The position numbers and the translations under genes are program-made. A model generated the notes under the pieces. That model saw only the letters and a program-made list of their open reading frames with translations. It ran no database searches and had not been told where the DNA came from. A stretch of 64,000 bases of DNA, from the NCBI GenBank assembly GCA_942491735.1, contig CALOCN010000001.1, positions 1,030,071-1,094,070 on the forward strand. The letters are read 5' to 3'. This document shows positions 2,994 through 62,832 of this stretch, in pieces. Each line of letters opens with the position of its first letter. The stretch's first letter is position 1. Origin of the DNA: Candidatus Eiseniibacteriota bacterium. Its GTDB lineage: Bacteria > Eisenbacteria > RBG-16-71-46 > JABDJR01.

Positions 2994-3737
2994 TTGGAGA
3001 CAGAGGTTTACGATTACTTCTACCACGCCGAAGAAGCCCACTGGTGGTTCCGGGCCCGGCGCCGGGTCCTGGCCTCGGTCCTGCGGGGAGTCCTCCCCAC
3101 CGGTTCGCTCCGCATCGCCGACGTGGGTTGCGGCACCGGGGGCATGCTGGGGGTGCTCTCCGAGCTGGGCACGGTCACCGGAGTCGACGCGGCGCCCGAG
3201 GCCCGCGACTATTGTCGTCGGCGGGGATTCGACAACGTCCTGGACCCGGATACCTGGGCCCGCGACGGCGCGTCCTATGATCTGGTCACCGCGTTCGATG
3301 TGGTGGAGCACGTCGAGGACGATGTGGGTTTTCTCCGCATGATGGCCAACCGCCTCGCCCCCGGGGGGCGTCTGTGCGTGACCGTCCCCGCCTACCAGTT
3401 TCTCTGGAGCACGTTCGACGAAATGAACCACCACAAACGTCGCTATTCCCGTCGGCGGTTGGTGGAAGCCATGAACGCGGCCGGGCTGCGCGTCACCCGC
3501 AGCACCCACTTCAACACGTTGCTGTTTCCGCCCATCGCCGCGGTGCGACTGTTGGAGAAGACCCTCCGCGCCGATCCCACCGACCCCGAGGAGAAGAAAC
3601 GTTCCCTGGCCCGTTGGTTCAAGGTGGGTCCCCTCAACGGTCCGCTGGAAGCGGTGTTCGCATCCGAACGACACGCACTGGCCGGTATGGATCTGCCGGT
3701 GGGTTGCTCCATCCTCGCCCTGGCGGAGTCCGCATGA
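2994..3737 (+). CDS. class I SAM-dependent methyltransferase
   Basis: SAM-binding motif I VGCGTGG; TTG start preceded by GGAGGA about 9 nt upstream. Confidence 0.75.
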   Translation: METEVYDYFYHAEEAHWWFRARRRVLASVLRGVLPTGSLRIADVGCGTGGMLGVLSELGTVTGVDAAPEARDYCRRRGFDNVLDPDTWARDGASYDLVTAFDVVEHVEDDVGFLRMMANRLAPGGRLCVTVPAYQFLWSTFDEMNHHKRRYSRRRLVEAMNAAGLRVTRSTHFNTLLFPPIAAVRLLEKTLRADPTDPEEKKRSLARWFKVGPLNGPLEAVFASERHALAGMDLPVGCSILALAESA

Positions 3738-5896
3738 AACAGGTCGTGACCAACAAGTCGGGAGAGCTGCGCATCCTCGAGGTCCCGGATCCGGCGCTGC
3801 AACCCGGCTTCGTGCTGGTGCGCACGGTCTGCTCCCTGGTCTCCCCGGGGACCGAGGGCGCCCAGGTCCGGGAAGGCAAGGCCGGTCTGCTGACCAAGGT
3901 GCGTGAACATCCGCGCGAGGTAAAGCAGGTCCTGGCCAAGCTCAAGAAGGAGGGCGTGCGCTCCGTGGCCAACCAGGTCCAGGAGAAGCTTGCCCAATGG
4001 CGTCCCCTGGGATACAGCCTGTCCGGCACCGTCATCGCGGTGGGGGAGGGCGTGGATGATCTGGCGGTGGGGGACGCGGTGGCCTGTGCCGGTGCGGGGT
4101 ATGCGATCCACGCGGAGCGGGTCTGTGTTCCCCGGAACCTCGTGGTACGCCACCCCGAGGGACTGACCCACGCGCAGGCCGCGTTCGTCACCCTGGGCGC
4201 GATCGCCCTTCAGGGGGTGCGGCGGGCCGAGCCCACCCTGGGCGAACGGGCGCTGGTGGTCGGGTTGGGTCTGGTCGGGCAACTGGCTACCCAGCTCCTG
4301 GTCGCCGCCGGGGTTCGGGTGCTGGTTCGCGACCTGGATCCGGCCCGGATCGCCCTGGCCCGCGAACTGGGAGCGGAGGCCGCGCTGGAAGGGGACGCGG
4401 ATCCCGAAGCCACCGCCGCCGCCTGGACCGGCGGGGTGGGGGTCGATCTGGCCCTGATCTGCGCCGCGACCCGCTCCAGCGCTCCGGTGGATGACGCGGC
4501 GCGCCTGCTGCGCGAACGGGGGCGGCTGGTCGTGGTCGGCGACGTGGGGCTGGAGTTGGAACGCGGCCCCTTCTACATGAAGGAACTCGACTTCACCCTG
4601 AGCAAGTCCTATGGCCCGGGCCGCTACGACCCGGTGTACGAGGAAGGCGGGGTGGATTACCCGGTGGGGTACGTGCGCTGGACCGAGGGCCGCAACATGG
4701 AAGCGGTGCTGGACCTGATCGCGCGCGGCCGCCTTTCGGTGGACCGTCTGGTGAGCGAAACCGTCGTCGTGGACGACGCCCCGGGCATCTACGAGAAGAT
4801 CGTCGCCGGCGAGGGTGGCCTGGCCAGCGTGATCACCTACCCCGAAACCAACGTGGCGCCCTCCCGCACGGTGCAGCTGACTCCGGCCGCGCCGGTCGAG
4901 GGCAAGGCCGGCGTGTTGGCGGTGGGAGCCGGCTACTTCGCCAAGGCCTTTCATCTTCCCAACCTCGCCCGGCAGGAGGCCCTGCACCTGGCCGGCGTGG
5001 TGAGCGGCACCGGCGCCAATGCCCGCCAGACCGCCGAACGCTACGGAGCTTCCTTCGCCGGCACGGACCTCGACGAAGCGCTGACCCAGCCCGGCGTGGA
5101 CGCGGTGCTGCTCTCGACCCGTCACCATCTTCATGTTCCCCAAGCCCTGGCCGCGATCCGCGCCGGCAAGCACGTTCTGGTGGAGAAGCCGCTGGCGCTG
5201 GACCGGGAGGGTCTGCGTGATCTGGCCCAGGCCCTGCAACGGAATCCGGTGCGGCTCGCGGTGGGGTTCAATCGCCGTCACGCACCCCTGGTGACGTCGT
5301 TGCGCGAGCTGCTTGCTGCCAGCGGCGGCCCCATCCACGGGGTCTACCGGATGAACGCGGGGCGCCTCCCCGCGGATCACTGGGTGAACGATCCGGTGGA
5401 AGGCGGGGGACGCATCCTCGGGGAGGGTGTCCACGTGTTCGACCTGTTCACCCATCTTGCGGGAACCCCGGTGCGGGTGCAGGCCTCCATGGTGCGTTCG
5501 GCCGACGACGCGGTCATCGATACCGACAACCTGACCGCCACCGTGACCTTCGAGAACGGATCGGTCCTCACGCTCCTCTACACCACCGCCGGTCCCAAGG
5601 GTTATCCCAAGGAACAGCTCGAGGTGTTCGCGCCCGGTCTGGCCGCCACGCTCATCGACTATCGCGAGCTGGCCTGGACCGGATCCCGAAGCGGGAAGAA
5701 GACCCTGCGCGCCGAGGACAAGGGGCAGGCCGCGGAGATGGACGCGTGGGCCGGGTATCTCACCGGCAAGGATGCAGCGGTCGCCGACTTCCAGGCCGCC
5801 GCGCTCTCCACCTGGCTCACCCTCATGGCCCTCGAGTCCGCGCGCACCGGGGAGCCCCGGGAGGTCGCGGCCACGCTGTCCGAGGTGCTTGGGTAG
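3734..5896 (+). CDS. bi-domain oxidoreductase (N-terminal MDR/zinc-ADH-like domain fused to Gfo/Idh/MocA-like domain)
   Basis: Internal ATG at 3734 (residue 121 of track ORF 3374..5896) overlaps upstream stop (ATGA); two dehydrogenase-like halves by eye. Confidence 0.75.
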   Translation: MKQVVTNKSGELRILEVPDPALQPGFVLVRTVCSLVSPGTEGAQVREGKAGLLTKVREHPREVKQVLAKLKKEGVRSVANQVQEKLAQWRPLGYSLSGTVIAVGEGVDDLAVGDAVACAGAGYAIHAERVCVPRNLVVRHPEGLTHAQAAFVTLGAIALQGVRRAEPTLGERALVVGLGLVGQLATQLLVAAGVRVLVRDLDPARIALARELGAEAALEGDADPEATAAAWTGGVGVDLALICAATRSSAPVDDAARLLRERGRLVVVGDVGLELERGPFYMKELDFTLSKSYGPGRYDPVYEEGGVDYPVGYVRWTEGRNMEAVLDLIARGRLSVDRLVSETVVVDDAPGIYEKIVAGEGGLASVITYPETNVAPSRTVQLTPAAPVEGKAGVLAVGAGYFAKAFHLPNLARQEALHLAGVVSGTGANARQTAERYGASFAGTDLDEALTQPGVDAVLLSTRHHLHVPQALAAIRAGKHVLVEKPLALDREGLRDLAQALQRNPVRLAVGFNRRHAPLVTSLRELLAASGGPIHGVYRMNAGRLPADHWVNDPVEGGGRILGEGVHVFDLFTHLAGTPVRVQASMVRSADDAVIDTDNLTATVTFENGSVLTLLYTTAGPKGYPKEQLEVFAPGLAATLIDYRELAWTGSRSGKKTLRAEDKGQAAEMDAWAGYLTGKDAAVADFQAAALSTWLTLMALESARTGEPREVAATLSEVLG

Positions 5897-7795: not shown

Positions 7796-8728
7796 GTGAA
7801 CATCCTCATTACCGGGGGCGCGGGCTTTATCGGCTCCAATCTCTCCGAGTTCCTTCTGGGGCAGGGCCATCGCGTCATCGCCATGGACAACCTGCTGACC
7901 GGGAAGGTGGAGAACATCGAGCACATCCACCACCCGAAGTTCACGTTCATCGACTATGACGTGACCAACTTCATCTTTGTCGACGAGCCGCTGGACTACG
8001 TGCTGCACTTCGCCAGCCCGGCCAGCCCCATCGACTATCTCAAGCTTCCCATCGCCACCCTGAAGGTGGGGGCGATCGGGACCCACAAGGCGCTCGGGTT
8101 GGCCAAGGCCAAGGGGGCGAGCTTTCTCATCGCGTCGACCAGCGAGGTCTACGGGGATCCGCTGGTCCATCCCCAGGAGGAGTCGTACTGGGGAAACGTG
8201 AACCCCATCGGCATCCGCGGGGTCTATGACGAAGCCAAGCGGTTCGCCGAGGCCATGACCATGGCGTATCACCGGTACCACAAGGTGGACACCCGGATCC
8301 TGCGGATCTTCAACACCTTCGGACCGCGGATGCGCCGCAATGACGGTCGGGCGGTGCCCACCTTCATCAATCAGGCGCTGTCGAACCAGGACATCACGGT
8401 GTTCGGGGACGGATCGCAGACCCGCTCCTTCGGCTACATCGACGACCTGGTGGAGGGCATCTACAAGCTCATGCTCTCCAGCGAGAACGACCCGGTGAAC
8501 ATCGGCAATCCGCAGGAAATGACGGTGAAGGAGATGGCCGAGACCATCATCGAGCTCACCGGCTCCAAGAGCAAGATCATCTACGCGCCGCTTCCCGAGG
8601 ACGATCCCAAGGTGCGTCAGCCGGATATCTCCAAGGCCAAGCGGGTGTTGGACTGGGAACCCCGGACCCCGGTGCGCGAGGGCCTGATCAAGACGGTAGA
8701 ATGGTTCGCTGCCAACCACTCGAAGTGA
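7796..8728 (+). CDS. UDP-glucuronate decarboxylase (UDP-xylose synthase, ArnA-decarboxylase-like SDR)
   Basis: GTG start with AGGAG 5 nt upstream; TGGAGFIGS Rossmann motif, YDEAK catalytic motif; strong by-eye similarity to UXS proteins. Confidence 0.85.
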
Positions 8729-8732
8729 AGGA

Positions 8733-9452
8733 ATGCCTGTGAAGGGCCTCGTGGTCATTCCCACCTATAACGAAGCGGACAACATCCGCGAGCTCGTCCC
8801 CCGTGTCCTGGAACAGGACCCCGGTCTGGAGATCCTCGTCGTCGACGACAACTCGGTCGACGGCACGGGGGCGATCGTCGACGAGTTGCGGGCCACCGAG
8901 CCGCGCCTGCACATTCTCCACCGACCGGGCAAGATGGGTCTGGGTACGGCGTACGTGGACGGGTTCCGCTACGCCCTCGAGCGGGACTACGAAGTCGTGT
9001 TCGAGATGGACGCGGACTTCAGTCATGACCCGGACTCCCTGCCCGCGTTTCTCGAGGCCATCCAGGACAACGACCTGGTCATCGGCTCCCGGTATCTGCA
9101 CGGGGTCACGGTCGTCAACTGGCCGCTGACCCGTCTCATTCTTTCCTACGGGGCGAACGTCTACACCCGTCTCATCACCTGGATGCCGCTCAAGGACGCC
9201 ACCGGCGGCTTCAAGTGTTTCCGGCGGGAGACCCTCGAGGCGATCGACCTGGACCGGGTGGGTTCGGACGGGTACGGCTTCCAGATCGAGATGAACTTCA
9301 AGGTGTGGCGCAAGGGCTTCCGGGTGCGCGAGATCGGCATCGTCTTCGTGGATCGCCGGGTCGGTATCAGCAAGATGAACAACAAGATCATCTGGGAGGC
9401 GATGTGGTTGGTGTGGCGTCTGCGATTCCTCGATCTCGTGGGAAGGCTCTGA
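8733..9452 (+). CDS. polyprenol-phosphate sugar synthase (Dpm1/ArnC-like GT2)
   Basis: 239 aa; VIPTYNEADNI and DADFSHDP motifs characteristic of dolichol/polyprenol-phosphate mannosyl/glycosyl transferases. Confidence 0.8.
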   Translation: MPVKGLVVIPTYNEADNIRELVPRVLEQDPGLEILVVDDNSVDGTGAIVDELRATEPRLHILHRPGKMGLGTAYVDGFRYALERDYEVVFEMDADFSHDPDSLPAFLEAIQDNDLVIGSRYLHGVTVVNWPLTRLILSYGANVYTRLITWMPLKDATGGFKCFRRETLEAIDLDRVGSDGYGFQIEMNFKVWRKGFRVREIGIVFVDRRVGISKMNNKIIWEAMWLVWRLRFLDLVGRL

Positions 9453-9456
9453 GTCC

Positions 9457-11601
9457 GTGGTCGATCTCTCGATCGTCATCGTTTCCTACCGCACACCGGA
9501 GGTGTTGCGGGAGTGCCTGAAGGTGCTCACCACGGATACGGGGACACGCAGCCGCGAGATCCTGGTGGTGGACAACGACTCGGGAGACGAGAGCCCGGCC
9601 GTGGCCCGCTCCTTCGAGGGAGTCCGGGTCATCGAGACCGGTGACAACCTGGGATTTGCCGGCGGCGTCAATCGCGGACTGGCCGAGGCCGACGGCCGTT
9701 TCCTCCTCGTCCTCAACCCGGATATCGAGGTCCAGCCCGGCTCCCTGGACACCCTGATCGACTTCATGGAGGCGCACCCCGAGACCGGGATCGCCGCCCC
9801 CAAGCTGCTCAACACCGACGGCACCCTGCAGCACTCCTGCCGCCGCTTCTACACCCTGAGCACGATCATCCTGCGACGCTCCTTCCTGGGCCGGATCTTT
9901 CCCGATGCCGCGCCGCTGCGGCGGCACCTCATGTTGGACTACGACCACGAGACCCCGCGCGCGGTCGATTGGGTGGCCGGAGCGGCCATGCTGGTGCGTC
10001 GCGAGGCGCTGGACGATGTGGGTCCCATGGACGAGCGCTACTTCCTCTACTTCGAGGACGTGGACTGGTGCACCCGCATGCAGGCCCGCGGTTGGCTGGT
10101 GCACTACGTGCCGGACAGCGTCATGACCCACCATTGGCAACGGGCGAGCCGCACCCTGGGTCCGGCCGCGCGGCGCCACCTGCGCAGCGGGCTCCGCTTC
10201 TACGACCGCTGGGGCGGGTTCCTCCATGTGCTGCGGCAATCGGCCGGTGCGTGGCGGACCGGCGCCCTCGTGGCCCTGGACCTGTTGACCATCACCGCCG
10301 CGTTTCTCCTCGCCTTCCTCGCCCGTCAGCAGATGGCCTTCTGGCTCCAGAAACCGGTCTGGTCGCTCTCCTTCTACGGCAGCTTCTTCGCGGCGAGCGT
10401 GGTGGTGTACCTGGCCGGTTTCTCCATGCAGGGGCTGTACCGGGAAGTCCGCGAGGGGGACTGGGTGGATGTGGCCTTCAGGGTGATCAAGGGAGCGACC
10501 CTGGGCGCGTTGGTGCTGATGGCATCGACCTTCGTCCTGGACATGCGCTCCTACTCCCGCGCCATCGTGCTCGCCTCGTGGCCCCTGGCCGCCATGGGCG
10601 TGTTCCTCAACCGTCGCCTGGTCTACGCGCTCAGCGCGCGGGCGCGCCGCGAGCGGTGGAACCTGCGCCGGGTCGCCCTGATCGGCGAGGACCCGGCCAT
10701 GGATCGTCTGGAAGCCACGCTCCGGGAGAACACTGAGCTGGGCTGGGAACCGGTGCGGATTCGCCGCACTCCCTGGGTGGGTCTGCCGCCCCGGGACGCC
10801 GACGCGCTGCTCATCACCCTCCTGGCCCGGGAGCGGGTCACCGAAGTGGTGGTCAGCCCCACCGCGTTGGGTGTGGCCGAGGATGCCGTGGCCGAACGCA
10901 TTCTCCCGCTGCGCCGCGCCGGTCACGGGGTTCGTCTGGTCTCCAACTTCCTCTCCGCGCTGCCTCCGCGGGCCCGGGTGGAACGGATCGGTGACGTCAG
11001 CTGGCTCGCCCTGGAACGGCCCCGCCTGCAGCCCACCAAGACCAGCAAGCGGGTGCTGGATCTGGCGGGGGCCCTTGTGCTTGGTGGGTTGGGTCTCCTT
11101 CCCGTGTTGGCCCTGGGCGCGGCCCGTGGCCTCGCCCGGCGCGAGTTTCTGGAACCTGGGACCCCCTGGAAGGGTCGATGGGGGGAGACCCTGCGTGTCC
11201 GGCGGATTGCCGGCGGGGGTCGTCTCGCCGATTACCCCCTGCTGGGCGCCGTGCTGAGGGGGCGGCTCAGCCTGGTGGGACCACGTCCGCTGGCTCCGGG
11301 GGAAACGGTTCCCGGGGGAGACGCCTGGCTTCGGGTGCGTGAGCACCACCGTCCCGGTCTGGTGGGTCCCTGGTCGCTGGTCGCGACCCAGACCCCTGAA
11401 GAGGAGATGCAACAGGAACTTCGGTATCTCGAAGATTGGACTGCGGAACTCGATCTCAAGCTCCTGGCGCGGGTGGCACTTCGCCGCCCGGGAGGCGGTC
11501 ATGGCAGCGGGTCCAGTTCTCCCGCGCGTCGCACGGAGACCGCTCCCGATGGCCGACCCTCGGCCGCCCCGCGCAGTGCCCACCCCATGGGGACCTCCTG
11601 A
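9457..11601 (+). CDS. fusion protein: N-terminal GT2 glycosyltransferase + membrane region + C-terminal polyprenyl-phosphate sugar phosphotransferase (Bac_transf-like)
   Basis: GTG start; N-terminus IVIVSYRTPE...VVDNDSGD (GT2); central hydrophobic segments; C-terminal region with RVLDLAGALVLGGLGL and PGLVGPWSL resembling WbaP/WcaJ-type sugar transferases. Confidence 0.65.
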   Translation: MVDLSIVIVSYRTPEVLRECLKVLTTDTGTRSREILVVDNDSGDESPAVARSFEGVRVIETGDNLGFAGGVNRGLAEADGRFLLVLNPDIEVQPGSLDTLIDFMEAHPETGIAAPKLLNTDGTLQHSCRRFYTLSTIILRRSFLGRIFPDAAPLRRHLMLDYDHETPRAVDWVAGAAMLVRREALDDVGPMDERYFLYFEDVDWCTRMQARGWLVHYVPDSVMTHHWQRASRTLGPAARRHLRSGLRFYDRWGGFLHVLRQSAGAWRTGALVALDLLTITAAFLLAFLARQQMAFWLQKPVWSLSFYGSFFAASVVVYLAGFSMQGLYREVREGDWVDVAFRVIKGATLGALVLMASTFVLDMRSYSRAIVLASWPLAAMGVFLNRRLVYALSARARRERWNLRRVALIGEDPAMDRLEATLRENTELGWEPVRIRRTPWVGLPPRDADALLITLLARERVTEVVVSPTALGVAEDAVAERILPLRRAGHGVRLVSNFLSALPPRARVERIGDVSWLALERPRLQPTKTSKRVLDLAGALVLGGLGLLPVLALGAARGLARREFLEPGTPWKGRWGETLRVRRIAGGGRLADYPLLGAVLRGRLSLVGPRPLAPGETVPGGDAWLRVREHHRPGLVGPWSLVATQTPEEEMQQELRYLEDWTAELDLKLLARVALRRPGGGHGSGSSSPARRTETAPDGRPSAAPRSAHPMGTS

Positions 11602-13874
11602 TGCATCACACTCCACGACACGGTCGGCTTCTCCCGGCCGTCCTGGCCCTTCTCGCGATTGCCGTCGCCCTCCCGCCGAACGTCCGGGCCCAGAACGCCG
11701 CCGACGCGTTTACCCCGTTCGTCGCCGCGTTCGACCTCACCGAGATCACCACCACCGGGGGCGTCCTGTGGATCGCCACCAACGGGGGGGGCGCGTTGCG
11801 TTTCGATCCCAACGGCGGCGGGTTCACCCAGTACCCCAAGTTGTTGGGCACCGGGCCGAGGGGCAACGACCTCGTCACCACCTGCGTCGATTCGGAGGGC
11901 CGGGTCTGGTTCGGCAGCGCCACCCGGGGTTTCACCTTCTTTGATCCGCAGACGCAGACCTGGGATCGCCGCTCGGAGGAATGGCCCGACCCACGGATCC
12001 GGGTCATCCGCTGCCTCGAGGAAGGGGTCTACATCGGCACCCAGGAGGGGCTCTCCCTGAAACCCACCGCCAACCGGACCGACATCTGTGCACCGGCCGA
12101 CCCCAGCTGCATTGTTCCCTCGTTCATCGTCAACGACTACGCCCTCCTGGACGAGAGTCTCTGGGTGGCGACCCGCGAGGGGTTGGGACGGTTCAGCGAG
12201 GGGACGTGGGACTCGCTGAACACGCTGCCGGTCGGGTCCCAGGGGCAGAACTCGCTCTCGCTGGTCACCTTCGAGGGGCAGCTCTGGGAAGCGGCGGAGT
12301 TCGCCGCCTCGACCGGGGCGGTGCGACGCCTGGTGGACGGGGCCTGGCAGGTGTTCGAGCTGCCGGCGCACAGGTTGCGCGTCCTCGACGGATCGCTCTA
12401 CGCCATCGCGGCCGGGGATCTGTTCCGCTGGGACGGTACCGCGTTCCAGCCCCTGTCCGAGCCGGTGGACGATGACATTCGCGACGTAGCTCTCCTGGAC
12501 GGTGTCTATTGGTTGACCACCGGCAACGGGTTGGTTTCCTGGAACGGCACCGCGGCCACGTCGACCCGCTTCGTTCCGCCCGGGTTGGGGCTGGGGGGGG
12601 AGTTCCAGGCCCTCACCGTGGACAGCAAGGGGACGGTGTGGGCCGGCACCATCGGGAACCGGATCGGCATTGCCTCCCGGACCCGAACCGGCGAGTGGGA
12701 CACGATCCTGCCGGGAGCGAGCGGCCTGGAGAACGAGTGGATCTTCCAGCTGTATGCCGACAGTGGGGATCGGTTGTGGATCGGACACTGCTGTTGTCCC
12801 GAGGGACGCTGCCGACTCGAGGTGGATTGTGCCGGCGGCATCGGGAGTATCGCCACCTACCGCAACGGGTGGGCGTTCGCCGAGGACAACGCCCGCCGCA
12901 TGTGGGTGGGGACGGATCAACTCGGCGCGTTGGTCTTCCGGCGCACCACGGACTGTTCCTGGGAGCTCGAGGATCAACTGACCGCCTCGGACCCCGCCGG
13001 CGTCATGTCTTCCAACAGCGTGCGCGCCATCGCGGTCACCGGGGAAGGCACCTACTTCGGCCACCTGCAGAACGGGCTCGACTACTGGCCGCACCGCGGC
13101 AACCTGAGCACGGGGCGGGACGGGTCGAACTGGATCCATGTCGGAACCACCGGCTTCGGACTCCTCGACAACAACGTGGGCTCCATTGCCCTGGTGGGGG
13201 AGGATGCCTGGGTCGGCACCTCGAGCGGCCTGCACCGGTTCCGCGCCGGGGGTCTGGTGACCCGGTGTCCCTCGCGTATTCTCGACGACCTGGACGATCA
13301 GGCCCGTCGGGTCACCGCGGTCACCGTCGATCGGGACGGGAACCTCTGGGTGGGGACGGATTCGGGACTGCTGTTCCTGCGGCGCGGAGGAGCCTGTGAC
13401 GCGGGCGGCGGCGAGTTCCTGTCCTACACCCAGGACAACTCCGCACTCCCGGACAACAACGTGCTCTCGGCCACCCTCAACCCGGTGGATGGTTCGGTCT
13501 GGATGGGAACGTCCACCGGTCTGCTGCGGATTGACCCCGCCGTCTTCACCAGCGGAGGAGGGAGCGCACCGGACCAGTACGTGCTCTATCCGAACCCCGT
13601 CGATCTGACCCGGGTCGGGGCGCGGGTGAGTCTGGGACTGGAGTCCGGCGGCTCCGTGGATCGCGTTCCCCTGGCCGATGCCCAGCAGCCGGAGGTCCTC
13701 GACATGGCGGGTCAGGCGGTGGGCCGGTTCGATACCTTCATGGATGGCGGCGACGAGGGTTGGGTGTGGAACGGGAAGAACCTGACCGGGAGCGTGGTCG
13801 CCCCGGGACTCTATTTCGTGCGAACGCAGGTCGGAGGACAGACGGTGGTGCTCAAGCTCGGGGTAGTGCGATGA
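11601..13874 (+). CDS. secreted beta-propeller protein (two-component-regulator-propeller-like repeats) with C-terminal FlgD-Ig/T9SS-like domain
   Basis: Internal ATG 11601 (overlaps upstream stop, TGATG); signal-peptide-like MHHTPRHGRLLPAVLALLAIAVALPPNVRAQ; about 10 repeats of LW[IV]GT..GL..F type; C-terminal YPNP...WNGKN..G..V..GLYFV. Confidence 0.65.
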   Translation: MHHTPRHGRLLPAVLALLAIAVALPPNVRAQNAADAFTPFVAAFDLTEITTTGGVLWIATNGGGALRFDPNGGGFTQYPKLLGTGPRGNDLVTTCVDSEGRVWFGSATRGFTFFDPQTQTWDRRSEEWPDPRIRVIRCLEEGVYIGTQEGLSLKPTANRTDICAPADPSCIVPSFIVNDYALLDESLWVATREGLGRFSEGTWDSLNTLPVGSQGQNSLSLVTFEGQLWEAAEFAASTGAVRRLVDGAWQVFELPAHRLRVLDGSLYAIAAGDLFRWDGTAFQPLSEPVDDDIRDVALLDGVYWLTTGNGLVSWNGTAATSTRFVPPGLGLGGEFQALTVDSKGTVWAGTIGNRIGIASRTRTGEWDTILPGASGLENEWIFQLYADSGDRLWIGHCCCPEGRCRLEVDCAGGIGSIATYRNGWAFAEDNARRMWVGTDQLGALVFRRTTDCSWELEDQLTASDPAGVMSSNSVRAIAVTGEGTYFGHLQNGLDYWPHRGNLSTGRDGSNWIHVGTTGFGLLDNNVGSIALVGEDAWVGTSSGLHRFRAGGLVTRCPSRILDDLDDQARRVTAVTVDRDGNLWVGTDSGLLFLRRGGACDAGGGEFLSYTQDNSALPDNNVLSATLNPVDGSVWMGTSTGLLRIDPAVFTSGGGSAPDQYVLYPNPVDLTRVGARVSLGLESGGSVDRVPLADAQQPEVLDMAGQAVGRFDTFMDGGDEGWVWNGKNLTGSVVAPGLYFVRTQVGGQTVVLKLGVVR

Positions 13875-15325
13875 CTGAGAGTCGGGTCCTCATTGTCGGC
13901 GCGGGGAGCGCCGGGCGTATGACCCTGCGGGAGCTGCGCGCCCATCCGGAATCGGGAACGGTACCGGTCGGGTTCATCGACGATGGCGCCGCGCTGCACG
14001 GCACCGAGGTCGACGGCCTGCCGGTGCTGGGGGGACGCCAGGATCTCCCCGCCCATCTGGAGGCGACCGGCGCCGAGGGCATCCTCATCGCCCTTCCGTC
14101 GGTGCACGGAGCGGTGATCCGGGAGATCGTCGAGACCTGTCGTGAAGCGCGGATCCGCTTCACCATTGTCCCCGGGATCTGGGAGATCATCCGGGGCGAC
14201 GTGCACTTCGAGCACATCCGGCGTATCGAGCCCGAGGATCTGCTCGGTCGTCAGACCGTCGAGGCCGACGCCTCCGTCCTCACCCCGGCCTATCGCGGGA
14301 AGCGGATTCTCGTCACCGGCGCGGGCGGATCCATCGGACGCGAGCTGGCCCGTCAGGTGCTGGCCCTGGAACCGGAGCGGGTCACCCTGCTGGGCCGGGG
14401 GGAGAACAGCCTCTTCGAGAGCGAGCTGCACCTGCGCCCGCATGCCGGACGCACGCCGGTAAACCTGGCCCTGGTCGACGTGCGCGACGTGGCCGCGGTG
14501 ACGCGCACCCTGGCCTCGGTGAAGCCGGACATCGTGCTTCATGCCGCCGCCCACAAGCACGTGACCTTCATGGAGCGCCACCCGGAAGAGGCCATCCTCA
14601 ACAACGTGATCGCCACCCGCAATCTCGTCGTCGCGGCCGAGGCGGCCGGGACCGAGCGCTTCGTCATGCTCTCCACCGACAAGGCGGTGAACCCGCGCAG
14701 TGTCATGGGCGCCTCCAAGCGGGTCGCGGAGCTGGTCCTGGGGGACCGCACCCGTCAGGGCTCCCCGGTGCGTCTCATGGCGGTGCGGTTCGGCAACGTG
14801 CTGGGTAGCCGGGGGTCGGTGGTCCCGCTCTTCCAGCATCAGATCGCCCGGGGAGGGCCGGTCACCGTGTCCCATCAGGACGTGGCCCGCTACTTCATGA
14901 CGGTGAGCGAGGCGGCCATGCTGGTTCTGGAAGCGGGCGCACTGGGAGACGGGGGCGAGGTGTTCATCCTCGACATGGGCGAGCAGCTCTCCATCCTGGA
15001 GTTGGCGCGGGATCTCATCGTGCTTTCGGGCAAGCGGCCCGAGACCGACATCCCGGTGGTCATTACCGGTCTTCAGACCGGCGAGAAACTCCGCGAGGAG
15101 CTGGTCCACGACTTCGAGGAACTGGCTCCCACCCGTCTGGCCAAGATTTCCGCCGCCCGGCGCCGCGAGGGCTCCGATCCCGACCTGTCCCGGGCCCTGG
15201 AAGAGCTGGAGTCGCTGGCGTTGAACGCCGATCGCCGGGGCATCGTCCATGCGCTGACCGCGTTGCTCCCCGAAGCCGAACTGGTACTCCCCGACAAGCC
15301 GGTCGCCGCGGACAGCGACGCCTGA
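13871..15325 (+). CDS. polysaccharide biosynthesis protein CapD/PglF/WbpM family (nucleotide-sugar 4,6-dehydratase), soluble form
   Basis: Internal ATG 13871 (ATGA overlap); two Rossmann-like regions (VGAGSAG, TGAGGSIG) and FGNVLGSRGSV motif. Confidence 0.8.
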   Translation: MTESRVLIVGAGSAGRMTLRELRAHPESGTVPVGFIDDGAALHGTEVDGLPVLGGRQDLPAHLEATGAEGILIALPSVHGAVIREIVETCREARIRFTIVPGIWEIIRGDVHFEHIRRIEPEDLLGRQTVEADASVLTPAYRGKRILVTGAGGSIGRELARQVLALEPERVTLLGRGENSLFESELHLRPHAGRTPVNLALVDVRDVAAVTRTLASVKPDIVLHAAAHKHVTFMERHPEEAILNNVIATRNLVVAAEAAGTERFVMLSTDKAVNPRSVMGASKRVAELVLGDRTRQGSPVRLMAVRFGNVLGSRGSVVPLFQHQIARGGPVTVSHQDVARYFMTVSEAAMLVLEAGALGDGGEVFILDMGEQLSILELARDLIVLSGKRPETDIPVVITGLQTGEKLREELVHDFEELAPTRLAKISAARRREGSDPDLSRALEELESLALNADRRGIVHALTALLPEAELVLPDKPVAADSDA

Positions 15326-15333
15326 GCGGGGCG

Positions 15334-16311
15334 GTGGTGGACGTTCTGGACGCCGACGCGCCCCCCGAGGGAATGGACGCGCTCTGGACCTCGGTGCCCG
15401 GGGCCACCCTGTTCCTGCAACCGAGATGGACCGAGACCCTTTCCCGCGCCTTTCCCGGGCTTCGGTCCCGTTATCTGATCGCCCGCGAGGGGAACCGCCT
15501 GACCGGCGTGTTGCCCTACACCCTCAAACGCAAGCTGGGTCTGGATCAGGTGCTTTCCTCCCCCTTCGGGACCCACGGGGGTCCGCTCACCGCCGACGGT
15601 CCCACCGCATCCCGTCTCGCCGAGGCGTTCCACAAGCGCGCCACCCGCCCCACCGTGGTCCGCTGCGAGCTCACCGTATTCGATCCCTCCTCGGAACTGA
15701 CCGAGGCCCTGCGCCCGTCCCTGGGCACGTGGTTCCAGGAGTTCCAGACCCACGTCATCGACCTCACCCCGGGGCACGAGGAACTCTGGCTTCACCGGTA
15801 TCGGCGCAACACCCGCAACTGTGTCCGGATGGCCGAACGGGCCGGGCTGCTCTACACGGTGGAGCGGGACGAGGCGGCGCTTGCCTTCCTCGCCCGTACC
15901 CACGCCGAACAGGCCGAGGCCTGGACCGGCATTCCTCCCGTCCCCCTGGAGGCGCTGCGGGTGGTGATGGACGCCTACGGTAATGACGCACGCATTCTGG
16001 TGGGACGCCGGGAGGGGGAGCCGGTGTGCGCCATTCTCATGCTGGAACAGTCGGGGCGGGAAACCCACGCCTGGGTCAGCGGAGCGGTGCCCGAAGCACG
16101 GCCCTTGCGCGCCTATCACGGGCTGATCGACGCCACCATCAAGGACGCCTGCTCCCGCGGGGTAGCCGCGTATCACTTCGGCGGAAGCGGTCGGAAGGAA
16201 AAGCTCGAGTTCTTCAAGGAGACCTTCGCCGCCAAACCGGTCCCCGTCTTGCGTTGCTTCCACATGGCGGGCTGGTTTCGCAGGCTCCGCCGGGGGCCGG
16301 CATGGGACTGA
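15334..16311 (+). CDS. FemAB-like / BioF2-like GNAT-fold acyl- or aminoacyl-transferase
   Basis: GTG start; by-eye resemblance to Acetyltransf_6/FemAB family proteins common in EPS loci. Confidence 0.55.
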   Translation: MVDVLDADAPPEGMDALWTSVPGATLFLQPRWTETLSRAFPGLRSRYLIAREGNRLTGVLPYTLKRKLGLDQVLSSPFGTHGGPLTADGPTASRLAEAFHKRATRPTVVRCELTVFDPSSELTEALRPSLGTWFQEFQTHVIDLTPGHEELWLHRYRRNTRNCVRMAERAGLLYTVERDEAALAFLARTHAEQAEAWTGIPPVPLEALRVVMDAYGNDARILVGRREGEPVCAILMLEQSGRETHAWVSGAVPEARPLRAYHGLIDATIKDACSRGVAAYHFGGSGRKEKLEFFKETFAAKPVPVLRCFHMAGWFRRLRRGPAWD

Positions 16312-17891
16312 GCCGGCTCCTGCCCCTGGCCCTGGTCCTGGTCGCCGTCCTGTTGGGGATCGTGCTCGTTGAGCCCTATCGCGCGGTCACGGTCGAGTTC
16401 GACGACGGACGCACCCTGTCCGTGGTGAACCCGGAACGTCTCAACCACACCTCGGACGTGTGGGACTACCTGCAGCTGGGACGCCGGTTGTTCGAGGGAT
16501 ACGGCTTCAGCAGCCGCTTCACCTATGTCCCGTTCCTGCCGGAGTCCGCCGCGTATCTGGAGGAGCATGACGCGTTCCCGCTCCTCTGGCGCCAACCCGG
16601 CTATCCGGCGCTGCTCGCCCTGGGCTACCGGTTGGCCGGGGGGCCGGACCCCAACGTCCTGCTGGCCCTGCAGCTCCTGTGGGTGATCCTGCTCCCCCTG
16701 GCCACGCTCTACCTGGCCCGCGCCCTGCTCCCGCCGGGAGGCGCCGCGCTGGCCGCCGGGCTCGCCCTGGCTTCGCCGCTCGTGCTGGGTGTACGGGAAC
16801 CCTTGGTGGCGACCACCTTCTTTGCCTGCTGGACCGCGCTCCTTTTCGGTACCGCGCTTCGGGTGCGGGGGCCCATGGGGGTGATCGGGTTGGGGCTGTT
16901 GATCGGGGTGGGGGCCTTGTTCCGCCAGGAGACCTGGCTTCTCGTTCCCGCACTGTTCACCGTGTGGTGGGTGCGAGGCGAGCGGGGGCGGGTGAGCGGG
17001 GTGGCCATCGCCGCGGTCACGGTCCTCCTCGTGCTGCTCCCCTGGATGGTTCGCACCGCGCAGATCACCGGGCACCCGTTCTACAACGCGGCGTCGCTGA
17101 TCTACCACGACACCCCGTCCTTTCCCGGCTGGGCCGCCTCGCGCACCCTGGCCATCCGCGAAACGACCCCGCTCGCGTTCATCCTGGCCCATCCCCTCGA
17201 CATCCTGGCCAAGAGTGCGCTGAACCTGCTCCGGTTCGGCAGGGACCTGCTGCTGCTGCCGGGACCTGCCGCGGCCCTGTTCGCCTGGTGGTTCCTCATT
17301 CGTCCCCAGTCGACCCAACCGCGGGTTCGCGCGTACCGGTGGGGCTACCTGGTTGCCCTTGCCGTTCCGGTACTCGTACTGGCCCCCATGGAGTACGCCC
17401 CCCGTTTTCTCGCCCCCATGGTTCCCCTGGGGGCCACCGCGGCCGCCTTCGCCCTGTCCCGGATTCCCGGTCGGTCGCGTCTGTTGACCGTCGTGGTGCT
17501 CGTGGTGTCCCTGGTCGTGCTGGTCTCCGCGATTCGCAACCGACCGGTCCGGGGAACCGCTCCCGAGGCGATTCGCGACCTGCAGGAACTGGTGTTGCAG
17601 GTGGGGCCCCGCGCACTGGAGCCGGACCAGGTCGTGGTGAGCGATGCCCCGACCCTCTTTGCCTATCTCTGGGATCGGCCGGCAGTGTGGGCACCGGTGC
17701 CGTTGAGCATGCCGGCGGTTCGGGAACTGGTCCCGGTCCGGCTCGGTCTCCTCACCTGCACGGGCGGCATCTATGACGGTCTGCCCCCGGAACTCCTGGG
17801 GCGCTACGCGGCCTACGGCCGGGTGACCCCGCATGGGTGTCGGGCCTGGGTGGACTTCGCTGACCCGCCCGCGGAAGCGACCACCCCATGA
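16302..17891 (+). CDS. polytopic membrane protein, putative GT-C glycosyltransferase (ArnT/PMT-like)
   Basis: Internal ATG 16302; many hydrophobic segments; first-loop motif DVWDYLQLGRRLFEGYG resembling the D(E)xxYxxxAR motif of GT39/GT83 enzymes; assignment tentative. Confidence 0.4.
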   Translation: MGLSRLLPLALVLVAVLLGIVLVEPYRAVTVEFDDGRTLSVVNPERLNHTSDVWDYLQLGRRLFEGYGFSSRFTYVPFLPESAAYLEEHDAFPLLWRQPGYPALLALGYRLAGGPDPNVLLALQLLWVILLPLATLYLARALLPPGGAALAAGLALASPLVLGVREPLVATTFFACWTALLFGTALRVRGPMGVIGLGLLIGVGALFRQETWLLVPALFTVWWVRGERGRVSGVAIAAVTVLLVLLPWMVRTAQITGHPFYNAASLIYHDTPSFPGWAASRTLAIRETTPLAFILAHPLDILAKSALNLLRFGRDLLLLPGPAAALFAWWFLIRPQSTQPRVRAYRWGYLVALAVPVLVLAPMEYAPRFLAPMVPLGATAAAFALSRIPGRSRLLTVVVLVVSLVVLVSAIRNRPVRGTAPEAIRDLQELVLQVGPRALEPDQVVVSDAPTLFAYLWDRPAVWAPVPLSMPAVRELVPVRLGLLTCTGGIYDGLPPELLGRYAAYGRVTPHGCRAWVDFADPPAEATTP

Positions 17892-19438: not shown

Positions 19439-20403
19439 CGGTGCGGTTCGGTTGGGGACTCGCCCAAGCCGAGCCCCTGCTGGAGCGGGCGCCCAGCCTG
19501 TTCCAGACGCCCCGTTGGCTGCACGCGTTGGCCGGCGCCTATCCCCGGTTTCGGCTCGGGGCGTTCCGGGTGGAACGGGATGGGGTGGTGACAGCGGTGC
19601 TCCCGGTGGCCCGGGCCAGGCCCTCGGGCCTGCACGAGTGGGTCTCGCTTCCCTTCGGCACCGACGGGGGGCCGGTGTTCCGGGAGACTCCCGATCCCGA
19701 GGCAGCTACGCAGCTGTTCCGGGCCTTTCGCGACCGGGTGGGGGGACTGCGGGTGGCCCGGTACGAGATGGTCATCCCCCAACCGGGTGAAACGGTGGCG
19801 CGTGCGTTTCGCGACGTGTTCTCCACCCGGGTGCGCGAGGACCGGGTGCGGGTGTTGGAATTGACCGAGGGACCCCGGGCGATCTGGGATGGCTACGCCG
19901 GTACCATGCGCACCCGGATCCGCCGTGCCCGGGAACTCGGGGTCCGGGTGGAGTCCATGCCGGCCTCGGCCCAGGCCCTGGCCCGGTTCTATCCCCCTTA
20001 CGAACGCCTCAGCCACGCATGGGATCTGTCCTGGCGTCACGACCGGGAGACCCTGGAGGCCTTGACCGCCGGTCTCGGGGATGGGGCGCGGATCTGGGTG
20101 GGATCGGTGGAGGGCCGGGTGGTCACCACCGAACTCATGCTCTACGACCGGGGCACCACCGCGCACACCTGGCTCTGCGGCGCGGTTCCCGAGTCCCGGG
20201 ATGTCTTTGCCCGCCATCTGTTGTTGCACACGGTGATCGAGAACGCCGCGCGGGAGGGCTACCGGCGGATGGTCTTCGGGGCCAGCGGGGGGAGCGACGG
20301 GGTGGACGGGTTCAAGCGCGGGTTCGGGGGCTCTCCGCGCCCCGTGCTGCGGGCCTTCCATCAGGCCCGTTGGGTCGATTGGGTGCAGCGGGCCCGATGG
20401 TGA
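19435..20403 (+). CDS. FemAB-like / BioF2-like GNAT-fold transferase (second copy)
   Basis: GTG at 19435 overlapping flippase stop (GTGA); C-terminal half resembles gene 15334-16311 (TWLCGAVPESR vs AWVSGAVPEAR; FGASGGSDG vs FGGSGRKEK). Confidence 0.55.
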   Translation: MTVRFGWGLAQAEPLLERAPSLFQTPRWLHALAGAYPRFRLGAFRVERDGVVTAVLPVARARPSGLHEWVSLPFGTDGGPVFRETPDPEAATQLFRAFRDRVGGLRVARYEMVIPQPGETVARAFRDVFSTRVREDRVRVLELTEGPRAIWDGYAGTMRTRIRRARELGVRVESMPASAQALARFYPPYERLSHAWDLSWRHDRETLEALTAGLGDGARIWVGSVEGRVVTTELMLYDRGTTAHTWLCGAVPESRDVFARHLLLHTVIENAAREGYRRMVFGASGGSDGVDGFKRGFGGSPRPVLRAFHQARWVDWVQRARW

Positions 20404-20435
20404 TACACTTTTTCGGATTTTGCCCCGGGAGACCC

Positions 20436-27740: not shown

Positions 27741-27810
27741 GCGGGCTCCTGTGGGACATGGGCGAAAGGGGAAAGAGGCAACGAGTCTAGGGAGCGGGGG
27801 AGACGGGGTC

Positions 27811-28385
27811 AAGCACGCGCCCCGAGCATCAGCGACCACCCCAAGCGAAGGCCCCGCAGACCACCCGGGAGGGGCGCGAGGGGGTTCCGACGACGAAAGC
27901 CTGCGCGTGGAATGGGTCGGCCGGCGCCCCAGGCTACACGCTGCGAGAAGCAACGAGCGCAGCCGGCCGGGGCCCCATTTCGCGCGCAGTAGCGAGTGGA
28001 GACCGTCCAGTGGACGGTCTCCGCGAGCGACTGAGGAGGAGGAACCCCCTCGTGGCCCGGACGGTGGGAAGCGCGCGCCCCGGGCGGGTGGGAAGCAAGC
28101 GCCCCGGGCGGGTGGAAGCACGCGCCCCGAGCATCAGCGACCTCCCCAAGCGAAGGCCCCGCAGACCACCCGGGAGGGGCGCGAGGGGGTTCCGACGACG
28201 AAAGCCTGCGCGTGGAATGGGTCGGCCGGCGCCCCAGGCTACACGCTGCGAGAAGCAACGAACGCAGCCGGCCGGGGCCCCATTTCGCGCGCAGTAGCGA
28301 GTGGGGACCGTCCAGTGGACGGTCTCCGCGAGCGACTGAGGAGGAGGAACCCCCTCGTGGCCCGGACGGGTGGGAAGCGCGCGCG
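27811..28385. repeat. tandem direct repeat: two copies of a ~305-bp unit, each carrying an 11-bp-stem hairpin
   Basis: Copy 1 27811-28115, copy 2 28116-~28385; 3 substitutions over ~270 aligned bp by eye; hairpins GGAGACCGTCC-AGT-GGACGGTCTCC at 27998-28022 and 28303-28327 (copy 2 has A to G giving a G-U wobble); junction is 2.5 copies of a ~25-bp GGGAAGC..GCGCCCCGGGCGGGTG motif. Confidence 0.85.
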
Positions 28386-28513
28386 TCAGGCGGGTGCGAA
28401 GCGCCGCCTCCCGGATGGTGTGGAGGGCCCCTTGCCCGGTGGGATGGGCGCGGATTGCGAAACTGCTAGACTGCGAATGCCCCCCGTCACTCGACCCCGC
28501 CGCGGAGGACGCC

Positions 28514-41669: not shown

Positions 41670-41777
41670 GAATGGGACTCCTGAGGTTGCGGTGGGCCTA
41701 CGAGCATACCACTTTGATCTCTTATCGAACAAAGTCTTTAGTCAACTGCAACCGGTTGCTGGATATGCGTTTGTGGC

Positions 41778-62742: not shown

Positions 62743-62832
62743 GTGGACTCGTCGGGGGATCCGTTCCGGCCTGCCCGGATCGGGCGGGTCCCCCGGCCGT
62801 CCACGTTTTTGGGGGGAGGTGCCTGGAGGTTC

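Follow-up and report, generated by a model that had tools for sequence, protein, structure and literature searches.

In the window, by which we mean the whole 64-kb stretch of DNA analysed, one gene joins a GT2 glycosyltransferase to a C-terminal half that has the complete architecture of a large PGT (Lg-PGT) of the WbaP/WcaJ kind, a description more exact than that of a Bac_transf module alone (Table 1). The gene is real and conserved, and is not an assembly artefact. Its best explanation, to which sequence comparisons lead us to give a probability of about 0.7, is an active GT2 carried on a dead Lg-PGT half that acts as a membrane scaffold. The working catalytic part would be the N-terminal GT2 (GT-A, WbbL/rhamnosyltransferase-like) of an inner-membrane protein, and the C-terminal 445 residues would be a fossil large monoPGT, with its TM bundle, its nucleotide-binding/dimerisation domain PF13727, its re-entrant helix and its core fold, that no longer moves sugar-1-phosphate to polyprenyl phosphate. 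We infer that this pseudo-PGT half serves as membrane anchor, dimerisation module and possibly regulatory scaffold, keeping the cytoplasmic GT2 close to the membrane surface; there the GT2 would be active on a lipid-linked acceptor, extending an intermediate primed by a different enzyme.

Table 1. The fusion gene, its parts and its neighbours (positions in the window)
Feature	Position	Strand	Basis or remark
Upstream SDR sugar-nucleotide dehydratase/decarboxylase-type gene, same co-directional block	7796..8728	+	Pfam/NCBIfam
Upstream 239-aa DPMS-like (polyprenyl-phosphate glycosyltransferase-type) GT2, TM-less	8733..9452	+	PDB 5mlz, E 3.2e-33
Whole fusion ORF, 714 aa	9457..11601	+	GTG start; TGA stop 11599-11601
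GT2 (GT-A fold) glycosyltransferase domain, residues 1-260	9457..10236	+	Pfam PF00535, PF13641; Foldseek
Four-helix TM bundle, Lg-PGT type, residues 263-398	10243..10650	+	AF2 helices; NCBIfam TIGR03025
Cytoplasmic Rossmann-like domain (PF13727, 'CoA_binding_3', Lg-PGT DUF), residues 404-520	10666..11016	+	Pfam; AF2; WbaP 8t53 alignment
Re-entrant-membrane-helix equivalent, residues 529-559	11041..11133	+	Predicted by homology; Lys-Arg-x-x-Asp start (K531-R532...D535), mid-helix Pro
Degenerate PGT catalytic-core homolog, residues 560-675	11134..11481	+	Partial Bac_transf; hhalign; motif table
Ala591-Asp592 at catalytic Asp-Glu dyad positions	11227..11232	+	phmmer, MAFFT, tblastn, hhalign
Disordered, weakly conserved C-terminal tail, residues 676-714	11482..11598	+	pLDDT <50 for 680-714; mean pairwise identity 0.16
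Downstream secreted double Reg_prop beta-propeller, T9SS-like C-terminal domain	11601..13874	+	PorZ-like architecture, candidate only

Domain architecture of the fusion protein

The sequence-only reading had described a single 714-aa frame, free of frameshifts, with a GT2, hydrophobic segments and a C-terminal Bac_transf-like region. The frame proved to be exactly as described: it starts 4 nt past the stop of the upstream gene, its stop overlaps the downstream ATG (TGATG), and GC3 stays at 0.75–0.94 in one frame, with no switch, as far as residue ~650; for the final ~115 residues, disordered tail included, it is down to 0.66. A Pfam search found both expected domains in the one polypeptide, with matches to Glycos_transf_2 (PF00535, residues 5–115, E 7e-21, 75.3 bits against a gathering score of 23.3), Glyco_tranf_2_3 (PF13641, residues 4–243, 57 bits), CoA_binding_3 (PF13727, residues 325–435, E 7.6e-7, 29.8 bits against 25) and Bac_transf (PF02397, residues 590–672, E 2e-11, 44.2 bits against a gathering score of 27). 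The Bac_transf-like region is thus present, its PGLVGPWSL lying at residues 633–641 (nt 11353–11379), but the match covers only positions 88–172 of the 179 in the profile. In the AF2 model (pLDDT 88, pTM 0.78; pLDDT about 90 in the PGT-like core) the hydrophobic segments appear as four long helices, at 263–292, 304–324, 336–360 and 368–398, and a hydrophobic helix at 529–559.

The GT2 domain is the best-conserved part of the family, with a mean pairwise identity of 0.56, and it holds 68 of the 93 positions conserved at 90% or more. D39-N40, N87-P88-D89 and E200-D201-x-D203, which vary little or not at all among 112–115 sequences, are putative DxD-type acidic motifs, a role assigned by position and not by superposition; D121, Q125, C128-R129, R140-R141, D163-H164, H225 and H241 are also invariant in the family. 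Foldseek matched this half to the GT-A enzymes ppGalNAc-T2 and WrtF (E about 1e-13). The best full-length NCBIfam alignment was to TIGR01556, polyprenyl-PP-GlcNAc rhamnosyltransferase (residues 19–287 against profile positions 8–264 of 281), at 68.4 bits, far below the family cutoff of 200.55. The GT-A fold is common to the fusion and to WbbL-type GT2 rhamnosyltransferases, whereas in the fusion the GT2 is covalently joined to a membrane module. Several homologs of the fusion are named as WbbL-type rhamnosyltransferases in JGI annotation.

The rest of the chain follows the plan of the large monoPGTs WbaP of S. enterica (8t53), WcaJ of E. coli and CpsE of S. pneumoniae, with which it shares a four-TM bundle and PF13727 placed N-terminal to the core. 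The bundle keeps the signature residues D275, R290, Y307, Y328, S367-R368 and R386, which occur in canonical Lg-PGTs at frequencies of 0.64–0.95; a family-specific role considered for these invariants was dropped, as they are generic Lg-PGT signature residues. TIGR03025 aligns residues 274–553 to its positions 2–279, strands and helices alternate over residues 404–520 in the AF2 model, and Foldseek aligned the fusion to WbaP (8t53_A) with an E value of 9.6e-12 over 451 columns. The scores for TIGR03025, TIGR03023 and TIGR03022 lay far below the whole-protein cutoffs of Lg-PGTs (133 against 295.55, 93.9 against 410.75 and 72.9 against 403, respectively).

The predicted re-entrant helix, the VGPxP and PGxxG turns and the equivalent of PglC Asp169 are likewise shared with WbaP, WcaJ and CpsE. 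The query reads KRVLD...LLPVL at the helix and ELDLK at the Asp169 equivalent, D666, the partner in the Lys-Asp169 salt bridge. Across the family the helix start retains Lys at 0.87, Arg at 0.97 and Asp at 0.99, a Pro lies within ±3 columns in 0.85, and D666 is kept in 0.98. In PglC the Lys-Arg/Asp residues of the helix and Asp169 have roles in fold and topology, and the Pro has been implicated in polyprenol binding (PMC6133551). By contrast to WbaP, WcaJ and CpsE, the fusion has an extra N-terminal GT2 and is devoid of the Asp-Glu dyad, of the KFRxM...DPRxT...LRR segment and of the GxxQ Gln.

Degeneration of the PGT catalytic core

The PGT core retains SLVGPRP (605–611), PGLVGPWSL and D666, and hhalign aligned it to a canonical catalytic-domain profile with a probability of 100% and an E value of 1.7e-40. 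About 28 columns of that alignment are gapped, matching the absent KFRxM...DPRxT...LRR segment of ~24–28 residues. The catalytic dyad, for which PglC Asp93-Glu94 in the LDELPQ motif was taken as reference, was located by four alignments: phmmer with PglC and WbaP chains, MAFFT with WcaJ, tblastn with WcaJ, and hhalign. The query holds Ala and Asp there, the Asp at the position of the Glu, and none of 115 family members has D-E at or near these columns, where 37 different residue pairs occur. Other motifs, whose frequencies in 79 Lg-PGTs were 0.97–1.00, fell to 0.00–0.29 in the family, most such positions being gaps in the query: the Lys of KFRxM dropped from 1.00 to 0.01, DPR from 1.00 to 0.00, the Arg of LRR from 1.00 to 0.13, the Arg of GPRP, present in the query itself, from 1.00 to 0.29, and the Gln of GxxQ from 0.99 to 0.00. 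The sole conserved acidic residue of the family core is D666, the counterpart of a structural residue of PglC. Of the marks of the monoPGT superfamily, the fusion shows the match to the Bac_transf profile and the predicted re-entrant helix with its Lys-Arg start, Pro and Asp169 equivalent, and lacks the dyad and the other core motifs. Because the dyad and other catalytic and substrate motifs are missing, priming with sugar-1-phosphate by the fusion protein is, as far as residues can tell, unlikely.

The order of conservation is also inverted. In canonical Lg-PGTs mean pairwise identity is 0.51 for the core and 0.21 for the TM/DUF part; in the family, by contrast, it is 0.33 for the core, 0.37 for the TM part and 0.31 for the DUF. 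The core is still kept as a folded domain at this identity, which speaks against a pure anchor and implies some function. If the PGT half is dead, the family would be a natural pseudo-PGT whose accessory Lg-PGT module is constrained more strongly than its catalytic core, so that the function of the module is separable from catalysis and could be studied in this system. The role of the N-terminal Lg-PGT module is still debated, dimerisation and UMP sensing both being considered.

A precedent for this arrangement is provided by the PglF-like membrane-bound sugar-nucleotide dehydratases, where the TM+DUF module (TM bundle and PF13727) anchors a different enzyme (PMC10312794). In these proteins the module carries an SDR dehydratase, with nothing left of the PGT core, whereas the fusion keeps a decayed core together with the GT2.

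Gene neighbourhood and a possible hetero-complex

The fusion gene sits in a Wzx-type polysaccharide cluster, with a PglF-like gene bearing the DUF two genes downstream (13875–15325). In loci L002, L019, L020, L022 and L029 a close homolog of the SDR gene (468–548 bits) is found no more than about 2 kb upstream; in L005 the distance is about 9 kb. The beta-propeller is found downstream in at least 23 of 34 related loci. Its identity as PorZ was rejected, since NF052228, the model for PorZ, the T9SS A-LPS delivery protein, scored 83.8 against a cutoff of 260 with its best stretch at the C-terminus, and the match to PDB 5m11 (E 2.5e-9) was not specific, sensor-kinase propellers scoring better. 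In one relative, P0129 (1387 aa), the fusion protein and the propeller form one ORF; this was set aside as Rosetta-stone proof of coupling, as it is a single case with a signal-peptide-like junction and possibly a lost stop codon.

No separate PGT was found within ±10 kb in any of 42 related loci, whose flanks total about 547 kb. A tblastn search of the window for another intact monoPGT, with WcaJ as query, matched the fusion alone, and Pfam scans of 34 ORFs, the fusion among them and those at 51803–55159, 55253–57970 and 58330–62742 left out, gave no PF02397 beyond the fusion and no PF00953. That no alternative initiating PGT was seen in the 64-kb window or the 42-locus flanks speaks against the scaffold model. 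Rescue by an adjacent small PGT was considered for L085, where a 226-aa Bac_transf protein follows the dyad-less relative P0140, and was rejected, that protein being itself non-canonical (Val-Glu, VGNRP). Other Bac_transf proteins devoid of the dyad are P0135 and P0155.

The gene context is fixed in the decayed clade, with the DPMS-like GT2 directly upstream on the same strand in 33 of 35 related loci and highly conserved (280–410 bits). Its match to 5mlz (Pyrococcus DPMS) is confined to the catalytic part, and it has no hydrophobic segment. These observations favour a hetero-complex, which we regard as rather unlikely overall, in which the pseudo-PGT half would be a membrane subunit tethering the upstream GT2 and presenting polyprenyl phosphate, much as DPM3 tethers DPM1 and Ppm2 tethers Ppm1. 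With similarly low odds, the operon would supply periplasmic GT-C enzymes with a polyprenyl-P-sugar donor, the PorZ-like propeller handling the glycan. Consistent with a complex, the loci examined for intact or intermediate relatives (L015, L050, L053, L085 and L086) did not show this adjacency, the re-entrant-helix Pro is largely kept, and GT-C genes (PMT_2, TMEM260, YfhO) and LPG_synthase_TM genes occur nearby in L002, L003 and L004. However, among about 260 proteins none joined the small GT2 to the large protein in one chain as Rosetta-stone evidence, the basic core residues expected for binding of a lipid phosphate are not conserved, and tight adjacency may mean a shared pathway only.

A wider proposal, of doubtful standing, is that the conserved three-gene module of DPMS-like GT2, GT2-pseudo-PGT fusion and PorZ-like propeller would be an undescribed envelope-glycan machine of Eisenbacteria, Krumholzibacteria and Latescibacterota, in which the dead Lg-PGT would be a membrane subunit that presents the lipid carrier to one or both GT2s, possibly feeding a T9SS cargo-anchoring glycolipid. 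If it held, the monoPGT superfamily would gain its first described pseudoenzyme.

Relatives of the fusion and its origin

The BiPGT class, reportedly that of O'Toole, Imperiali & Allen 2021, bears on a further alternative, a genuine bifunctional enzyme whose C-terminal domain primes polyprenyl phosphate and whose GT2 adds the second sugar in channeled steps. As in BiPGTs, which combine a monoPGT-type (Bac_transf) domain and a second carbohydrate-active domain in one chain, the fusion carries a glycosyltransferase (the GT2, residues 1–260) and a Bac_transf-like part (529–675) in one ORF. Its PGT partner differs in comprising all the parts of an Lg-PGT (TM bundle, PF13727 and core), with the dyad and the catalytic motifs gone from the core, so that, by its residues, it would lack the bifunctionality of the class. 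The fusion is probably a variant of BiPGTs in which an active GT2 rides on a pseudo-PGT scaffold. The sequence-only reading had treated GT-PGT fusion as exceptional, whereas the BiPGT, a bifunctional monoPGT fused to a glycosyltransferase, is already a named class in passages of PMC10312794 and PMC11626204.

That such fusions are a recognised class is one point for bifunctionality. Others are that both Pfam domains exceed their gathering scores, that no other PGT was seen nearby, and that intact relatives exist. In L050 and L053 a homologous GT2 gene adjoins a separate canonical Lg-PGT gene, which suggests that the two activities were ancestrally coupled. The intact fusion P0181/L015 (Desulfatiglandales MAG) agrees with the decayed one in domain order and has a homologous GT2. 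P0181 is about 740 aa long and, unlike the decayed fusion, has an intact dyad and a complete Bac_transf (217 bits over profile positions 1–178, FDEIPQF...IGPRP); L015, the larger locus with this type, has neither the DPMS-like GT2 nor the propeller as neighbours. For the gene studied here, bifunctionality is nevertheless improbable: the dyad is replaced in the query and in all 115 relatives by hypervariable residues, KFRxM, DPRxT and LRR are missing, most of them along with the lost segment, the GPRP Arg and the GxxQ Gln are not conserved, the one conserved acidic residue of the core is structural, and the core is conserved no more than the scaffold domains, unlike in true Lg-PGTs. The earlier proposal that the protein channels the first two sugars is therefore not sustained for this gene, although it may fit the rare intact type P0181/L015.

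An artefact, whether two genes run together through faulty assembly or sequencing or a decaying pseudogene, is effectively refuted: the separate adjacent genes of L050 and L053 and the disordered tail of lower GC3 would fit it, but the coding signature is uniform in one frame, the AF2 model is a confident single chain, invariant residues occur in every domain, and the orthologs share the fusion. Among 120 listed of at least 658 homologs, most are 650–785 aa long with the same domain set and order, at 34–73% identity and from many independent assemblies, the architecture (~700 aa) being conserved across MAGs of three candidate phyla, Eisenbacteria, Krumholzibacteria and Latescibacterota. Among the complete or nearly complete genomes with a member of the family are CP070702.1, CP070763.1 and OY969801.1.

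Automated labels make it easy to regard this family as the cluster's initiating enzyme; should the PGT half be dead, the true priming enzyme is absent from pathway reconstructions of the three poorly known candidate phyla. The family probably goes back to an intact pair of GT2 and Lg-PGT. P0140, P0156 and P0169 are dyad-less but full-length, so that separate genes, the intact fusion, dyad-less full-length forms and forms that have lost the motif segment make up a readable series from enzyme to scaffold.

Architecture of the fused glycosyltransferase

Codon-position GC in sliding 300-nt windows showed one coding frame across the fusion ORF and no internal frame switch, consistent with the sequence-only reading. 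GC3 was 0.75-0.94 over roughly the first 650 residues and 0.66 in the last ~115 residues, disordered tail included. Neighboring genes are packed closely on the same strand: the fusion starts 4 nt past the upstream gene's stop, and its TGA overlaps the downstream ATG (TGATG). The proposed layout was likewise borne out: Pfam matched a GT2 N-terminal half and a Bac_transf-like C-terminal region, PGLVGPWSL was located at residues 633-641, and the hydrophobic segments appeared as helices in an AF2 model built from 112 sequences (pLDDT 88, pTM 0.78). In Foldseek searches of the PDB, the N-terminal ~280 residues matched the GT-A enzymes ppGalNAc-T2 and WrtF (E about 1e-13), and the remainder matched S. 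enterica WbaP as solved by cryo-EM (8t53_A, E 9.6e-12, 451 columns). Therefore, the GT2 is joined to the complete architecture of a large monotopic phosphoglycosyl transferase (Lg-PGT), more than a Bac_transf domain alone.

Features of the fusion (protein residues) and of the window (nucleotide positions)
Feature	Position	Strand	Basis or remark
Fusion ORF	9457-11601	+	GTG start, 714 aa (ORF listing)
Glycos_transf_2	residues 5-115		Pfam, E 7e-21
Glyco_tranf_2_3	residues 4-243		Pfam
CoA_binding_3 (PF13727)	residues 325-435		Pfam
Bac_transf (PF02397)	residues 590-672		Pfam, E 2e-11
GT-A domain	N-terminal part		AF2 model
Four long helices	residues 263-398		AF2 model
Rossmann-like alpha/beta domain	residues 404-520		AF2 model
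31-residue hydrophobic helix	residues 529-559		AF2 model
Small alpha/beta domain	residues 569-675		AF2 model
Disordered tail	after residue 675		AF2 model
GT4, epimerase			Start of cluster
Methyltransferase-like ORF	2994-3737		After epimerase
ADH/GFO oxidoreductase fusion	3374-5896	+	840 aa
Heparinase II/III-like protein			After ADH/GFO fusion
SDR dehydratase/decarboxylase-type enzyme	7796-8728		After heparinase II/III-like protein
239-aa GT2, DPMS-like	8733-9452	+	Pyrococcus DPMS 5mlz, E 3e-33
Secreted double Reg_prop beta-propeller	11601-13874	+	Directly after fusion; signal peptide, FlgD_ig/T9SS-like C-terminal domain
PglF/CapD-like UDP-GlcNAc 4,6-dehydratase	13760-15325	+	After propeller
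Acetyltransf_6 (GNAT-type) protein			After dehydratase
621-aa membrane protein	16026-17891	+	Before Wzx
Wzx			
481-aa protein	20019-21464	+	After Wzx
GT4, GT2			End of cluster
Formiminotransferase-cyclodeaminase	26061-28121	-	FTCD_N, FTCD, FTCD_C
Proteins with FlgD_ig or Por_Secre_tail type C-terminal domains	28370-29449, 34018-35529, 39627-41732, 62743-63696		

The catalytic core of the phosphoglycosyl transferase half

The role of initiating phosphotransferase first ascribed to this half is unlikely, judging by the sequence of its core. MonoPGTs share a conserved catalytic Asp-Glu dyad (PMC10312794, PMC10186338), found in the LDELPQ motif. Ala591-Asp592 of the fusion aligned to this dyad in four independent alignments: a phmmer comparison with PglC and WbaP chains, a MAFFT alignment that included E. 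coli WcaJ, a tblastn search with WcaJ, and an hhalign comparison of the fusion-family and canonical profiles (probability 100%, E 1.7e-40). Asp-Glu occurred at or near the dyad columns in 0 of 115 full-length family members, which carry 37 different residue pairs there. A segment of ~24-28 residues, whose canonical counterpart bears most of KFRxM...DPRxTxxG...LRR, is absent from the fusion core; the Bac_transf match spans only profile positions 88-172 of 179, and NCBIfam PGT models scored 73-133 bits against cutoffs of 296-411. Further core motifs were lost relative to 79 canonical Lg-PGTs, picked by the pattern [LIVMF]DE[LIVMF]PQ; their dyad and flanking motif columns are thus 1.00 by construction, whereas the motif positions tabulated below are independent of that pattern. 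As judged from these alignments, the PGT half is predicted to be without its catalytic apparatus.

Motif residues (fraction retained) and mean pairwise identity by domain
Position or domain	Canonical Lg-PGTs	Fusion family
KFRxM Lys	1.00	0.01
DPR Asp and Arg	1.00	0.00
LRR Arg	1.00	0.13
GPRP Arg	1.00	0.29
GxxQ Gln	0.99	0.00
GT2 domain, identity	not present	0.56
TM bundle, identity	0.21	0.37
PF13727 domain, identity	0.21	0.31
PGT (or PGT-like) core, identity	0.51	0.33

In PglC, re-entrant topology and fold are set by a Lys7-Arg8 motif, the helix-breaking Pro24 and a Lys7-Asp169 salt bridge (PMC6133551). The fusion family keeps the equivalents of Lys7 (0.87) and Arg8 (0.97), the Asp that comes next (0.99), a Pro no more than three columns from the Pro24 position (0.85), the Asp169 equivalent (D666 in the fusion; 0.98) and the Gly/Pro turn residues (0.92-0.98). 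The ranking of domains by conservation is reversed: canonical Lg-PGTs are most conserved in the catalytic core, whereas the GT2 half ranks first in the fusion family, with residues 1-252 holding 68 of the 93 positions conserved at 90% or more, and the core is no better conserved than the scaffold domains. Residues invariant in the TM bundle and PF13727 domain (D275, R290, Y307, Y328, S367-R368, R386, G410) form a generic Lg-PGT signature, present at 0.64-0.95 in canonical enzymes. This pattern therefore indicates strong selection on the GT2 and the accessory Lg-PGT module, and selection on the former catalytic core at the level of the fold only.

Possible roles and origin of the fused protein

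We favor, with a probability of about 0.7, a GT2 held at the membrane by a fossil Lg-PGT. With its four TM helices, the protein would place the GT2, the PF13727 domain and the PGT-like core on the cytoplasmic side, by analogy with WbaP. The GT2 half, which a low-scoring match suggests to be WbbL/rhamnosyltransferase-like, would presumably extend a lipid-linked intermediate primed by another enzyme. Dimerization and nucleotide binding have been reported for the WbaP TM bundle and PF13727 domain, a module also reused in PglF-like dehydratases (PMC10312794); in the fusion, the two might supply membrane localization, oligomerization and perhaps regulation. The main weakness of the anchor model is its need for a replacement priming enzyme; no PGT catalytic-domain match was found outside the fusion gene in 42 family loci (~547 kb of flanks).

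An unlikely alternative, compatible with the anchor model and able to extend it, is that the pseudo-PGT half serves as membrane subunit for the TM-less GT2 encoded upstream. This 239-aa protein resembles Pyrococcus dolichol-phosphate mannose synthase (DPMS) in the catalytic part alone, lacks a TM helix and exceeds the fusion in conservation; of the 42 loci, 35 include upstream sequence, and in 33 of these its gene is on the fusion's strand and ends no more than 200 nt before it. A propeller homolog lies downstream in at least 23 of 34 loci, an undercount because the propeller of locus L003 was detected by Pfam only. The loci examined for intact or intermediate relatives (L015, L050, L053, L085, L086) lack this DPMS-like GT2/propeller context. 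In one homolog, P0129, propeller and fusion are joined in a 1387-aa ORF. GT-C genes (PMT_2, TMEM260, YfhO) and an LPG_synthase_TM gene are found nearby in L002-L004. At L004, the locus of the distant relative P0051 (6.45-Mb contig), an SDR, two GT2 genes, fusion and propeller lie directly upstream of a division/cell-wall cluster (mraZ, rsmH, ftsI-type PBP, murE, murF, mraY).

True bifunctionality, in which the protein would act as both PGT and GT2 and, as originally suggested, channel the first two sugars, is very improbable, the PGT catalytic residues being absent. Relatives with an intact core do exist. An exhaustive phmmer search with residues 270-714 as query found 3817 matches among 1.84 billion representatives; within the best 150, almost all canonical-length proteins (440-520 aa) contain LDELPQ, whereas GT2-fused ones (650-745 aa) lack it, with exceptions. 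P0181 (739 aa) combines GT2, PF13727 and a full Bac_transf (217 bits, profile 1-178) whose LDEIPQF is intact, and an ORF of this type also occurs in a Desulfatiglandales MAG (L015). In the full-length P0140, P0156 and P0169 the dyad is replaced by D-L, E-K and E-D, respectively; a homologous GT2 is encoded immediately beside a separate canonical Lg-PGT with SLDELPQ at L050 and L053. These arrangements can be read as a series that starts with adjacent genes, passes through intact fusion and dyad loss, and ends with the motif segment gone; its direction is our inference. Directly downstream of the P0140 fusion (L085, 8001-10232) lies a gene for a small, non-canonical Bac_transf protein of 226 aa (10257-10937, +), with QLVETLQF and VGNRP replacing SLDELPQF and VGPRP. 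Together with P0135 and P0155, unfused Lg-PGT-like proteins without the dyad, it indicates that dyad-less Bac_transf exists in small and unfused large forms.

An artefact or pseudogene can practically be dismissed: a search of 5.8 billion proteins, limited to 8000 candidates, returned at least 658 homologs, and most of the best 120 are 650-785 aa long with the same Pfam set and 34-73% identity. Their sources are assemblies in NCBI, ENA, JGI and Logan, so that the assembly error from joined reads considered by the sequence-only reading was not borne out, and, where named, they belong to Candidatus Eisenbacteria, Krumholzibacteria or Latescibacterota; the 42 full or partial loci came from a scan of species-representative genomes. 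The gene is neither an assembly artefact nor rare. Nor is such a fusion exceptional, as had been assumed from GT2 and PGT being normally separate: GT-PGT fusions are a recognized class, BiPGT (PMC10312794, PMC11626204), and annotation pipelines already label both halves of the homologs, so the fusion itself is not new. A conserved multi-phylum clade with a pseudoenzyme PGT module and a fixed gene partnership appears undescribed; full-text literature searches for a pseudoenzyme or catalytically inactive phosphoglycosyl transferase, which did not cover the key 2021 network paper, returned nothing relevant.

The gene cluster and other features of the window

The first 23.5 kb form a Wzx-type polysaccharide cluster. 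The best NCBIfam match of the propeller was PorZ, a T9SS A-LPS delivery protein (84 bits, cutoff 260). The ADH/GFO ORF joins a zinc-type alcohol dehydrogenase (ADH_N/ADH_zinc_N) to a GFO/IDH/MocA oxidoreductase; its true start may lie downstream because the methyltransferase-like ORF overlaps it, and the same fusion occurs in the syntenic locus L002 (729 aa). The PglF-like dehydratase, a conserved neighbor two genes downstream of the fusion (468 aa in L002), has a PF13727 domain in common with Lg-PGTs and apparently no four-TM bundle, because the protein must actually begin beyond 13874. The 621- and 481-aa ORFs flanking Wzx gave no Pfam match; by cluster position they may be a GT-C/ligase and a Wzy-type polymerase, and a PMT_2 gene occupies the matching place in L002.

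Elsewhere, the formiminotransferase-cyclodeaminase carries ~129 extra residues before its first domain, which may reflect an over-long start call. The FlgD_ig/Por_Secre_tail C-termini, one of them on a GH16 glycoside hydrolase that also has an SdrD_B domain, suggest a T9SS-like sorting system in this organism.
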